Below the pieces are notes generated by a model. The model ran no database searches. It was not told the DNA's origin and was given only the letters and a program-made list of their open reading frames with translations. Below, piece after piece: positions 33,802-38,524 of a stretch of 47,224 nt of DNA (position 1 is the first letter of the stretch; every line of letters begins with the position of its first letter). Made by a program: the position numbers and the translations under genes. The stretch is from Escherichia phage ev099: the sequence record NC_049953.1, one strand, 5' to 3'.

Positions 33802-34699
<898 letters not shown>

Positions 34700-34856
34700 C
34701 TGGATTCTCTTGTCAGTTAGCTTTGGTGGTGTGTGGGAGTCGTAGTCCTGAACGAAAACACCCCACGATTGGCTCATTTGCAGCTAATCCGGATTCGCAC
34801 TTCCGGCCAATGTTTCGTTTCGTATCACACACCCCAAAGCCTTCTGCTTTGAATGC

Positions 34857-34887
34857 TGCCCTTCTTCAGGGCTTAATTTTTAAGAGC
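34857..34887 (-). promoter_or_regulatory. nutL (boxA and boxB hairpin GCCCTGAAGAAGGGC)
   Basis: Minus strand tgctcttaaaaattaagccctgaagaagggc. Confidence 0.85.
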
Positions 34888-34924
34888 ATCACCTTCATGT
34901 GGGTTAGTGCGTCCTGCTGGTGTG

Positions 34925-34990
34925 TTTAGTATCACCGCTAGTGGTATTTGTGTCAACACCGCCAGAGATAATTTATCACCGCAGATGGTT
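34925..34990 (-). promoter_or_regulatory. pL promoter with operators OL1-OL2-OL3
   Basis: TTGACA / 17 bp / GATACT on minus strand; operators TATCACCGCTAGTGGTA, CAACACCGCCAGAGATA, TATCACCGCAGATGGTT. Confidence 0.9.
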
Positions 34991-35144
34991 ATCTGTATGT
35001 TTTTTATATAGATTTATTTTTTGCAGGGTTGTGTGGCTTGGGAGGTGATCGAGAGATCAGAATTGCGTTGTTTAGTGAGTTGCACCTATTAATTTTAAAA
35101 TAAATACAATTGGTTATGTGTTTTTAGGTGGGGCGATCGTGAGG

Positions 35145-35171
35145 CAAAGAAAACCCGGCTCGGTGGCCGGG
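35145..35171 (-). terminator. rho-independent terminator immediately downstream of the NYN-domain gene, before OL
   Basis: Minus strand cccggccaccgagccggg hairpin followed by ttttcttt, 10 nt after the stop. Confidence 0.75.
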
Positions 35172-35180
35172 TTGATGGGA

Positions 35181-36038
35181 TTATCGTTTATTTCTTTGAT
35201 GTTTCTTTGCAGACTCAGCTTGAGTGTTTCCATACCTGCGTTTACCGCTATTGTTTTTTCCTCTAGGCTTGCCTTTTTTTCGATCTTCCCACCAGTCAGG
35301 TGCCGGGTCTGGCTCAACATGTAAAGCATCGGCAAGTCCTGATATCAAGCTGTATGACTGAACTCCATCAATGTGCTCTGACAGTGATGGGGTAACATTC
35401 TGTCTTAGTGGATCAAGAATAAAATCAATACCTTTAATTCTGGCGTGTTTGGCGGCAGGCACAAAGTCTGAGTCCCCAGCAACAAGGACAATTACATCAA
35501 CAAGTTTTTCATAAGCTAAAGTCGTGATATCCATCCCTAGCTTGATATCAACTTGTTTTTGTTTGATGTCATAGTAAAAATCATCATTTGTCAGTTCATC
35601 CCATTTTTTCGTTCCTTTCATCAGAGCATCAAGGGAGAATGTAGTTAGTTGCCATCGCTTATTATCAACAAGATTCCCTAATCTTAAGGCTGTTTTTCGA
35701 GTTTTTCTTAACTCTTCATGCAGCTCCGTTCTCAGAATATATGATTTTTCGAGTTTGAAATTCTTGCGACCAGGCGTCTTATTGCCAGGCTCAGGAAGTG
35801 GAAGGCGTGTTTGAATGTCGAGTGGTGGACAGTCATAGAAGTAAATTCTATAAAGCTCAAGCGGTTCCCTACGTTCTTGTGATTGACGTTTTCCATTAAG
35901 ATGGGAAAGAACCATTGACCATATTACTTTCATTATGCATTGCGCAGTCAGTTCATGCTCGGCGAAGTGTTTACGATGCGTAGCATGAACACGCTGCATG
36001 AAAAAACCCGCATCAATTAAAATTGCTGCTTTCTTCAT
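35181..36038 (-). CDS. NYN-domain (PIN-like) putative nuclease with basic C-terminal tail, occupying the rexA/rexB position
   Basis: 285 aa; KKAAILIDAGFF at N-terminus and DVIVLVAGDSDFVPAAK...GIDF core resemble NYN/LabA motifs; Lys/Arg-rich tail; located between cI and OL. Confidence 0.75.
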   Translation of the reverse strand: MKKAAILIDAGFFMQRVHATHRKHFAEHELTAQCIMKVIWSMVLSHLNGKRQSQERREPLELYRIYFYDCPPLDIQTRLPLPEPGNKTPGRKNFKLEKSYILRTELHEELRKTRKTALRLGNLVDNKRWQLTTFSLDALMKGTKKWDELTNDDFYYDIKQKQVDIKLGMDITTLAYEKLVDVIVLVAGDSDFVPAAKHARIKGIDFILDPLRQNVTPSLSEHIDGVQSYSLISGLADALHVEPDPAPDWWEDRKKGKPRGKNNSGKRRYGNTQAESAKKHQRNKR

Positions 36039-36046
36039 AAGAGTCC

Positions 36047-36107
36047 CAAAAAAATAGCCCAGAGCCGTTATGCAGATATTAACAATTGTCTGCGAACGGG
36101 GCTGGGC
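36047..36107 (-). terminator. long imperfect hairpin plus U-run between cI and the NYN gene start (intrinsic terminator or leader attenuator)
   Basis: Minus strand gcccagccccgtt...aacggctctgggc (13-bp arms, 11/13 paired) followed by tattttttt, about 12 nt upstream of the NYN ATG. Confidence 0.55.
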
Positions 36108-36118
36108 TTGGTTTAATT

Positions 36119-36147
36119 AATCTATGCCAAGTTGACTGTGCCGTCAA
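36119..36147 (-). promoter_or_regulatory. candidate sigma70 promoter for the NYN gene (TTGACG / 17 bp / TAGATT) overlapping a GTTGAC-N6-GTCAAC inverted repeat
   Basis: Motif spacing read directly from sequence on minus strand; unverified. Confidence 0.35.
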
Positions 36148-36165
36148 CATAAAACTTACTTCCTA

Positions 36166-36882
<717 letters not shown>

Positions 36883-36888
36883 TTAAAT

Positions 36889-36954
36889 CTATCACCGCAA
36901 GGGATAAATATCTAACACCGTGCGTGTTGACTATTTTACCTCTGGCGGTGATAA
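36889..36954. promoter_or_regulatory. OR3-OR2-OR1 operators with divergent pRM and pR promoters
   Basis: TATCACCGCAAGGGATA, TAACACCGTGCGTGTTG, TACCTCTGGCGGTGATA; pR TTGACT / GATAAT. Confidence 0.92.
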
Positions 36955-36970
36955 TAGTTGCATGTACTAA

Positions 36971-37180
<210 letters not shown>

Positions 37181-37187
37181 ATAACCC

Positions 37188-37219
37188 CGCTCTTACCCAT
37201 CCCCGCCCTGAAAAAGGGC
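37188..37219 (+). promoter_or_regulatory. nutR (boxA CGCTCTTAC, boxB GCCCTGAAAAAGGGC)
   Basis: Sequence motifs downstream of cro. Confidence 0.88.
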
Positions 37220-37298
37220 ATCCAATTAAACCACACCTATGGTGTATGCATTTATTTGCATACATTCAATCAATTGTTATCTAAGGAAATACTTACAT

Positions 37299-37592
37299 AT
37301 GGTTCGTGCAAACAAACGCAACGAGGCACTACGAATCGAGAGTGCGTTGCTTAACAAAATCGCAATGCTTGGAACTGAGAAGACAGCGGAAGCTGTGGGA
37401 GTTGATAAGTCGCAGATCAGCAGGTGGAAGAGAGACTGGATTCCCAAGTTCTCAATGCTGCTTGCTGTTCTTGAATGGGGGGTCGTTGACGACGACATGG
37501 CTCGATTGGCGCGACAAGTTGCTGCGATTCTCACCAATAAAAAACGCCCGGCGGCAACCGAGCGTTCTGAACAAATCCAGATGGAGTTCTGA
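37299..37592 (+). CDS. cII: CII transcriptional activator
   Basis: 97 aa MVRANKRNEALRIESALLNKIAMLGTEKTAEAVGVDKSQISRWKRDWIPKFSMLLAVLEWGVV... Confidence 0.95.
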   Translation: MVRANKRNEALRIESALLNKIAMLGTEKTAEAVGVDKSQISRWKRDWIPKFSMLLAVLEWGVVDDDMARLARQVAAILTNKKRPAATERSEQIQMEF

Positions 37593-37624
37593 GGTCATTA
37601 CTGGATCTATCAACAGGAGTCATT

Positions 37625-38524
37625 ATGACAAATACAGCAAAAATACTCAACTTCGGCAGAGGTAACTTTGCCGGACAGGAGCGTAATGTGGCAGATCTCG
37701 ATGATGGTTACGCCAGACTATCAAATATGCTGCTTGAGGCTTATTCGGGCGCAGATCTGACCAAGCGACAGTTTAAAGTGCTGCTTGCCATTCTGCGTAA
37801 AACCTATGGGTGGAATAAACCAATGGACAGAATCACCGATTCTCAACTTAGCGAGATTACAAAGTTACCTGTCAAACGGTGCAATGAAGCCAAGTTAGAA
37901 CTCGTCAGAATGAATATTATCAAGCAGCAAGGCGGCATGTTTGGACCAAATAAAAACATCTCAGAATGGTGTATCCCTCAAAACGAGGGACAATCCCCTA
38001 AAACGAGGGATAAAACATCCCTCAAATTGGGGGATTGCTATCCCTCAAAACAGGGGGACACAAAAGACACTATTACAAAAGAAAAAAGAAAAGATTATTC
38101 GTCAGAGAATTCTGGCGAATCCTCTGACCAGCCAGAAAACGATCTTTCTGTGGTTAAACCGGATGCTGCAATTCAGAGCGGCAGCAAGTGGGGGACAGCA
38201 GAAGACCTGACCGCCGCAGAGTGGATGTTTGACATGGTGAAGACTATCGCACCATCAGCCAGAAAACCGAATTTTGCTGGGTGGGCTAACGATATCCGCC
38301 TGATGCGTGAACGTGACGGACGTAACCACCGCGATATGTGTGTGCTTTTCCGCTGGGCCTGCCAGGACAACTTCTGGTCCGGTAACGTGCTGAGTCCGGC
38401 CAAACTCCGCGACAAGTGGACCCAGCTCGAAATCAACCGTAACAAGCAACAGGCAGGCGTGACAGCCAGCAAACCAAAACTCGACCTGACAAACACTGAC
38501 TGGATTTACGGGGTGGATTTATGA
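37625..38524 (+). CDS. O: replication initiator O
   Basis: 299 aa with embedded ori iterons. Confidence 0.95.
   Translation: MTNTAKILNFGRGNFAGQERNVADLDDGYARLSNMLLEAYSGADLTKRQFKVLLAILRKTYGWNKPMDRITDSQLSEITKLPVKRCNEAKLELVRMNIIKQQGGMFGPNKNISEWCIPQNEGQSPKTRDKTSLKLGDCYPSKQGDTKDTITKEKRKDYSSENSGESSDQPENDLSVVKPDAAIQSGSKWGTAEDLTAAEWMFDMVKTIAPSARKPNFAGWANDIRLMRERDGRNHRDMCVLFRWACQDNFWSGNVLSPAKLRDKWTQLEINRNKQQAGVTASKPKLDLTNTDWIYGVDL
37974..38110 (+). repeat. ori-lambda: four approx 18-bp iterons (ATCCCTCAAAACGAGGGA-like) plus AT-rich region inside O
   Basis: tccctcaaaacgaggga / tcccctaaaacgaggga / tccctcaaattggggga / tccctcaaaacaggggga then A-rich stretch. Confidence 0.88.

Follow-up and report, generated by a model that had tools for sequence, protein, structure and literature searches.

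A conserved leader RNA joined to an NYN-domain nuclease gene in the rexAB slot of Escherichia phage ev099: a candidate RNA-controlled toxin or anti-phage cassette

What takes the place of the RexA/RexB exclusion genes in a natural phage with lambda-type immunity? The question is raised by Escherichia phage ev099 (NC_049953.1), whose analysed sequence of 47,224 nt, hereafter the window, carries between cI and OL a 285-aa open reading frame (ORF) for an NYN-domain protein. The initial annotation regarded it as a single-gene exclusion system; it is not a single-gene unit, since it also includes a conserved, structured leader RNA whose 3′ end resembles a terminator. Sequence comparisons make it very probable that the cassette is a two-part unit of leader RNA and NYN nuclease, and our analysis marks it as a good candidate for an RNA-controlled toxin or anti-phage module. 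The best explanation overall, to which we assign a probability of roughly 0.5, is an autonomous cassette in which leader RNA and nuclease would be expressed from one promoter, the nuclease would be controlled by the RNA, and its activity would abort infection. The components of the unit are as follows.

36119..36147, minus strand: sigma-70-type promoter-like site, TTGACG-17-TAGATT, found by scanning; its -10 hexamer ends 10 nt before the hairpin
36056..36108, minus strand: 53-nt three-part imperfect leader hairpin, from RNA folding, covariation and a covariance model
36048..36054, minus strand: U7 tract, separated from the hairpin by one A and located 9 nt upstream of the ATG
35181..36038, minus strand: NYN-domain nuclease gene, 285 aa, ATG start, with core residues 1-250 and a variable basic tail at 251-285

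Read along the gene strand, the 127 bp that separate cI from the ORF (36039-36165) lead from the promoter-like site through the hairpin and the U7 tract to the ATG. The hairpin is built of an outer stem (AGCCCAG/CUGGGCU), a middle stem (CCGUU/AACGG) and an inner stem (GCAGA/UCUGC), and is capped by a 12-nt loop with an invariant A...UUA; together with the U7 tract it has the form of an intrinsic terminator and may be called terminator-like. In lambda, rexAB is co-transcribed with cI from pRM, whereas here the hairpin and U7 part cI from the nuclease gene, so that the rex-like expression in the lysogen implied by the initial annotation should not be assumed; the ORF has a promoter-like site of its own.

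Comparison of 13 distinct proteobacterial versions of the hairpin showed 93.7% of cells to be paired, as against 28-45% in slid controls, with compensatory double changes at 14 of the 17 pairs; none of 500 shuffles reached the observed values. RNAalifold independently yielded the same structure, with 15 of its 18 pairs compensatory, and the G-U pairs are compatible with the sense strand only. A covariance model built from the proteobacterial hairpin sequences scored 79.9 bits in the window (36048-36111, minus strand) versus about 20 bits on the opposite strand, and gave exactly one strong match (51-82 bits) in each of 36 proteobacterial sources, the window included. These strong matches always lie on the sense strand just upstream of a start codon, and the remaining ones are generic terminators. 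No other part of the cassette is as well conserved as the hairpin, which is identical at 54 of 54 nt in relatives with 75-77% identity in the coding sequence (CDS), 86-87% in the protein and 61-67% in the promoter region. Its three-part architecture and the loop A...UUA are kept from E. coli to Halomonas, while relatives with about 40% protein identity, from Burkholderia, Moraxella, Firmicutes and uncultivated contigs with Bacteroides-type promoter-like motifs, display a longer, divergent yet alignable hairpin with a T-run and some covariation.

Such constraint bears directly on whether the hairpin does anything beyond ending transcription. According to one alternative, the cassette is plain single-protein nuclease cargo, and the hairpin serves only as an attenuator or insulator that gives a costly gene low, context-independent expression, with no RNA-protein partnership. 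The hairpin is indeed shaped as an intrinsic terminator, with a GC-rich basal stem followed by U7, insulation would be helpful to a cassette that moves among transcriptionally very different slots, and in the AbiF/RCd22 pair of a Clostridioides difficile prophage, discussed below, the cis effect is also one of simple termination (PMC12373285). A generic terminator, however, needs no particular primary sequence, yet the 54-nt identity extends over loop and bulges, and the architecture and loop persist as far as Halomonas. Because the sequence constraint is so strong, we favor specific recognition of the hairpin over mere termination and regard the plain-nuclease alternative as rather unlikely; that the hairpin controls expression or activity of the nuclease appears probable.

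Other identities for the hairpin were considered and set aside. It is not the terminator of cI or another preceding gene, because in several loci it accompanies the NYN gene where the upstream neighbor is divergent or is a host gene. A DNA-level element, such as an operator or an attC-like site, is disfavored by the strand-specific G-U pairs and T-run and by the 80 versus 20 bits obtained on the two strands. Kinship with the prophage small RNAs AsxR and AgvB was rejected, as the covariance model scored at most 11 bits at the AsxR locus. Rfam had no family for the leader, RF03085 included, in the window region (E ≤ 10) or in 14 related loci (at the gathering score), and tandem repeats with a score of at least 30 were absent from positions 35000-36400, which excludes ToxI-like repeats. 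Phages of Firmicutes, Burkholderia and Moraxella, whose hairpins are longer, have AGUA(C/A) on the 5′ strand and usually GAA(A/C) facing it on the 3′ strand, a combination that may resemble the bulged-G (sarcin-ricin/loop E) consensus; it is not seen in the short proteobacterial form.

The remainder of the leader is similarly ordered in other loci. Upstream regions of homologues keep the succession of promoter-like site, homologous hairpin, T-run, 9-35 nt and start codon, with a T-run after the hairpin in all loci inspected, and the same order is found in the Firmicutes phages Dorea DO134P1 and Lactococcus Bacchus. In the measured proteobacterial, Moraxella-phage and streptococcal-phage loci, an equivalent promoter-like site with 8-12 of 12 matches lies about 8-22 nt before the hairpin; the exception among measured loci is Burkholderia phage phiE202. 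The hairpin precedes the gene in every context examined, whether downstream of cI, antisense between Q and holin, at an integrase-att edge, in P2-like cargo, in Gram-positive lysogeny modules or on a bare chromosome. A palindrome also overlaps the -35 hexamer in ev099:

36131..36148, minus strand: palindrome GTTGAC-N6-GTCAAC, seen in the sequence

TTGAC-N4-9-GTCAA palindromes with varying spacing recur in E. albertii, Edwardsiella, Pseudomonas and other loci and are missing in some AT-rich versions; the palindrome could represent an operator, a divergent -35 element or an upstream hairpin.

The protein component agrees well with the initial annotation. The ORF occupies the positions and strand originally given, and both motifs quoted in its support were confirmed, KKAAILIDAGFF at residues 2-13 and DVIVLVAGDSDFVPAAK...GIDF at residues 181-206. 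Pfam family PF01936 (NYN), which had been expected, matches residues 158-205 with 36.8 bits, above the curated gathering score of 24.2, and is present in every listed homologue with a full-length or C-terminal match; NCBIfam gave an NYN match below threshold only. A sequence search of PDB with the protein returned nothing significant, and fold searches were required, the best structural matches being the Marf1 NYN domain, VPA0982 and LabA-type NYN proteins. The AlphaFold2 model (predicted local distance difference test score 86.9) superposes on solved NYN domains, as would befit a PIN-like alpha/beta fold, and D9, D69, D164, D170, D189 and D191 do not vary among 41 aligned sequences, in which the homologues are 41-86% identical. 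With Pfam, fold search and invariant aspartates in agreement, the assignment to the NYN nucleases, with their PIN-like fold, is solid; the acidic metal site appears intact, and metal-dependent (ribo)nuclease activity is predicted.

The protein shares its fold and its acidic metal-site residues with Marf1, VPA0982 and LabA-type proteins, but differs from them in having insertions (about residues 72-97 and 130-158), a C-terminal extension with conserved L219, H222, D224 and WW249-250, and a bacterial and phage cargo context. Its N-terminal motif takes the form IDAGFF/IDGGFF, without the Asn that, as we take the consensus to be, NYN domains usually have three residues past the first Asp. The Lys/Arg-rich tail pointed out by the initial annotation is real in this allele, with 14 Lys/Arg and 3 Asp/Glu among the C-terminal 35 residues, but is confined to some clades: the Pseudomonas clade has an acidic tail instead, relatives of about 225 aa have none, and in the structure model the tail is disordered. 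We rejected the basic tail as a conserved nucleic-acid-binding module, and hence as a family trait, on account of this clade-specific composition.

Nor is the gene unannotated. The Prokaryotic Genome Annotation Pipeline (PGAP) labels it “NYN domain-containing protein”, and in PHROGs it is a full-length member of phrog_5783, of unknown function. Of the complete E. coli genomes, 74 out of 5426 have the full cassette, and phages 2B8, E212 and EC.P3 encode an identical protein, as do about 50 records of phages converting for Shiga toxin Stx2a. In RefSeq chromosomes of E. coli, the intact 285-aa ORF is annotated by PGAP as two pieces, a 117-aa NYN protein and a partial pseudogene (loci L003, 4282-5139, and L015, 3282-4139, with DNA 99.9-100% identical to the window); the split is likely an annotation artefact, because the 2B8 RefSeq record annotates the full 858-nt CDS. 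A protein search yielded 7035 clusters, typically of about 250-300 aa, from Enterobacterales, Pseudomonas, Halomonas, Shewanella, Acinetobacter, Pasteurellaceae and other hosts.

The cassette is not tied to one immunity type or to one genomic slot. In phages 2B8 and E212 and in the approximately 50 Stx2a phages, the gene is at least 99% identical and lies downstream of different cI alleles. In about 20 of the IMG/VR contigs with close relatives (at least 74% identity), the gene immediately upstream encodes a cI-like S24 repressor, 28-100% identical to ev099 cI, and the P22-like Proteus phage Brookers likewise has a repressor followed by an NYN gene. More distant homologues are found antisense between Q and holin in E. 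albertii and Edwardsiella prophages; in prophages of Pseudomonas and Halomonas they mark the integrase/att edge, in the P2-like Burkholderia phage phiE202 the homologue lies between portal and integrase with a toxin-antitoxin pair as its neighbor, and in Streptococcus phage Javan85 it separates repressor and integrase. Several phage and prophage contexts thereby bear out the proposed location in known prophage accessory slots, and because the cassette is cargo in several such slots, a role in lysogen benefit or exclusion is plausible. In Moraxella phage Mcat4 (locus L018, 4283-4470), the NYN unit adjoins a P1/P7-type RNA-based immunity region, with Rfam matches to isrK (61.9 bits) and C4 antisense RNA (71.3 bits) directly downstream of the NYN homologue. 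The Proteus chromosome, finally, has a lone, apparently fixed homologue between glmS and a transporter operon.

This stable Proteus copy, together with the adjacency of the gene to immunity-region regulators in several phages, would suit a non-toxic RNA-processing or regulatory nuclease, LabA-like, which in the lysogen would adjust transcripts of phage or host, for instance to control lysis-lysogeny or host physiology; NYN and LabA proteins do have regulatory roles elsewhere. The gene is, however, dispensable and mobile among heteroimmune phages with unrelated circuits, and its tight attenuation and frequent truncation suggest a cost. We consider a purely regulatory nuclease improbable.

Truncation is seen in E. 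coli, where an N-terminal remnant with the upstream region persists in about 200 complete genomes, mostly O157:H7. In the Sakai prophage Sp1 (NC_002695.2, 301423-301885), ECs_0273 is a truncated NYN remnant directly downstream of the cI gene ECs_0274, and its leader hairpin, at 301822-301885 on the minus strand, is fully intact (79.9 bits). In the Stx1 phage AU5Stx1 (KU977419.1 / NC_049920.1, 12372-12484), only the last ~38 NYN codons, corresponding to the basic tail, are left as a decay product.

The boundaries of the cassette in ev099 could be placed by blastn against lambda. Window positions 36159-37339 correspond to lambda 37219-38400 (cI, OR, cro and the start of cII) with 97.6% identity, and 34376-35173 to lambda 35037-35826 (N, nutL and OL/pL, up to the last base of rexB) with 92.7% identity, which upholds the description of a lambda-type immunity region with the ORF exactly in the rexAB slot. 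The block between these two segments and its immediate neighbors are:

35174..36158, no strand: substituted block of 985 bp, replacing lambda 35827-37218 (blastn)
36166..36879, minus strand: lambda-type cI repressor gene, 237 aa, directly upstream; context outside the cassette
35152..35173, minus strand: intrinsic-terminator hairpin with T-rich tail at the end of the unit, an 8-bp stem with 6 GC followed by TTCTTT

The lambda counterpart of the block spans 1392 bp and comprises rexB, rexA and the cI-rexA spacer. Homology breaks off sharply 8 nt past the cI stop codon and 7 nt past that of the nuclease gene (window 35173 = lambda 35826). As in lambda RexA-RexB, the ORF lies between cI and OL on the cI strand, with the same downstream terminator region; blastn of window 35174-36158 against lambda rexB-rexA gave no alignment, and in place of a two-protein sensor and membrane channel there is one soluble NYN nuclease with a leader RNA, unrelated in sequence and fold. 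The terminator that the initial annotation placed past the stop codon is a real stem, beginning 7 nt after it, but it belongs to lambda-homologous flanking DNA downstream of rexB, and for this reason it is common to lambda and not imported with the nuclease gene. GC content did not differ clearly between cassette and flanks and was uninformative on foreign origin. A promoter-like site, flanking terminators, sharp edges relative to lambda, and varied cI alleles and slots were all found, and from these the cassette appears to be an autonomous accessory element (“moron”) of temperate phages, distributed over several bacterial phyla.

The same placement bears on the idea of a counter-defense nuclease that destroys host immune RNAs, such as crRNA, retron or toxin-antitoxin RNAs. 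Phages do carry nucleases directed against host immunity, and this gene is phage-borne, but it is not part of the early lytic operons, being placed either in the cI-OL interval or antisense to the late operon, with a promoter-like site of its own, and also occurs as a lone chromosomal gene. Because such positions do not fit expression early in lytic growth, counter-defense is poorly supported and very improbable.

Further to the left, the sieB slot on the other side of N (33880-34383, plus strand) is unlike that of lambda and encodes a 167-aa ORF with a C-terminal CxxC...CxxC, for which Pfam gave no significant match (best E 0.028) and whose counterparts are called hypothetical proteins in RefSeq (WP_001278766.1, WP_129546988.1); therefore, a second exclusion-gene slot of ev099 also holds non-lambda cargo. 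Window 24000-47224 is a lambdoid mosaic, with the best partial matches to mEp332, PhiR11_1, ev243 and 434 (96-98% identity over 52-66% of this segment), none of which is among the phage-collection records matching the NYN protein.

Among systems of known function, the closest in layout is AbiF/RCd22 from a C. difficile prophage, in which a promoter is followed by a conserved noncoding RNA with a Rho-independent terminator and then by the toxin gene, with no promoter between them (PMC12373285). RCd22 RNA greatly outnumbers the read-through mRNA and lowers toxin expression in cis by termination, its deletion raising toxin mRNA 17-fold, and it also neutralizes AbiF in trans through direct binding (PMC12373285). 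The ev099 cassette similarly is prophage cargo in which a promoter-like site, a structured RNA with a terminator-like end and a toxin-like gene follow one another. The AbiF toxin, however, belongs to the Abi_2/AbiD/F group, HEPN/Cas13-like, and not to the NYN/PIN-like proteins, and RCd22 has two abiF motifs in about 100-130 nt, as opposed to one 53-nt three-part hairpin that itself resembles a terminator; the leader has no match to the abiF motif (RF03085), and the protein behind it is NYN and not Abi_2.

Type III toxin-antitoxin systems (ToxIN, CptIN, TenpIN; also AvcID) likewise place an RNA element and terminator directly upstream of the toxin under one promoter. These systems work in abortive infection, with shut-off of transcription as the trigger, and in the classical families the toxin is an endoribonuclease. 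At the level of sequence, the cassette has a terminator between RNA and toxin-like gene under one promoter-like site, but there is a single hairpin in place of tandem direct repeats, and an NYN/PIN-like fold in place of the ToxN/AbiQ fold. The shared layout also admits a selfish addiction or stabilization module, with a toxin and a labile RNA serving prophage or island retention and no anti-phage role. The occurrence of the gene on prophages and beside other toxin-antitoxin pairs would agree with such a module, as would the persistence of N-terminal remnants with an intact leader in the O157:H7 genomes. Yet the rex, Q-holin and int-att slots are typical for lysogenic-conversion and exclusion genes, and the tested loci of this RNA-leader-plus-toxin design, ToxIN and AvcID, act in phage defense (PMC10511110). 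We regard a purely selfish role as quite unlikely.

Returning to the cassette as an RNA-controlled unit that aborts infection, we infer its transcription pattern, termination efficiency, RNA-protein interaction, RNase activity, toxicity and anti-phage phenotype as follows. The sigma-70 promoter of the cassette would fire constitutively in the lysogen, independently of CI, and most of its transcripts, along with most read-through from pRM and cI, would halt at the hairpin to give an RNA of about 65 nt, with a minority proceeding into the nuclease gene. The nuclease would recognize the hairpin sequence-specifically, either as an inhibitory partner, in the manner of a type III antitoxin, or as a substrate for autoregulation, and a potentially toxic RNase would be kept low or silent in healthy lysogens. 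An infecting phage that shuts off host transcription, or upsets the balance of RNA and protein, would free the nuclease to cleave RNA and abort the infection, filling the RexAB niche by another mechanism. For phage exclusion or abortive infection as the selected function we see a chance only a little short of even. The greater conservation of the hairpin relative to the CDS is indirectly consistent with an RNA that binds or neutralizes the NYN protein; a trans-acting antitoxin is nevertheless a doubtful role for it. Equally tentative is the broadest formulation, by which hairpin and NYN protein would constitute a type III-like RNA-protein class of toxin-antitoxin or abortive-infection systems, with a PIN-fold toxin and a single terminator-hairpin antitoxin, in temperate phages of Proteobacteria, Firmicutes and probably Bacteroidota, and would provide the first validated bacterial NYN antiviral effector.

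Several observations speak against an RNA-controlled anti-phage cassette. Taken in the window alone, the promoter match is at chance level (3 found versus 4.3 expected), and as a consensus match it gives no evidence of function. No antiterminator-capable sequence was found upstream of the hairpin. The table of small RNAs from Hfq-crosslinking (CRAC) in O157 Sakai has no entry near 3018xx, where the Sp1 copy of the leader lies, a weak negative because the survey filter dropped sites within 100 bp of a coding region. The defense-database search proposed earlier did return domain-level PADLOC matches, but these were weak (HEC-09, E 2e-4; NYN model PDLC01154, E 1.4e-3) and spanned about 45 aa each around the GDSDF motif, with no full-length profile match. 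HEC-09, an NYN-domain candidate embedded in Hma defense systems and the sole NYN candidate assayed so far, conferred no protection against the phages used. Like the ev099 protein, it is a bacterial NYN-domain protein proposed for defense from genomic context, but it has an N-terminal helix-turn-helix-like domain and no reported leader RNA, and is only distantly related. Searches of a paper library on NYN proteins in phage, prophage, defense and RNA-motif settings yielded no study of this family and no data on its expression, activity, toxicity or effect on plating, and the stable Proteus chromosomal copy fits a housekeeping or regulatory role equally well as defense.

The position between cI and OL has classically been linked to exclusion of T4 rII and other phages, and the rexAB slot is a textbook prophage exclusion locus, so that a natural lambda-immunity phage with another cassette in it allows isogenic comparison. 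The protein adds a member to a known domain family, and its combination with an uncurated leader RNA is best described as a new variant of the RNA-plus-toxin design, in which a linked, strongly conserved structured RNA outside Rfam accompanies a large and uncharacterized NYN family of about 7000 clusters. There is also a connection to pathogens, as the cassette is carried by Stx2a phages of O121:H19 and by prophages of avian pathogenic E. coli, and its remnant with the intact leader is fixed in the O157:H7 prophage Sp1. If the RNA controls the nuclease, the RNA-leader-plus-toxin design known from ToxIN, AbiF/RCd22 and AvcID would extend to the PIN/NYN superfamily, and the covariance model would provide a sequence signature for finding such units. 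If the cassette blocks phages, it would represent the first functional bacterial NYN defense, a parallel to the antiviral NYN-type RNases of animals and vertebrates, KHNYN, N4BP1 and Regnase-1.

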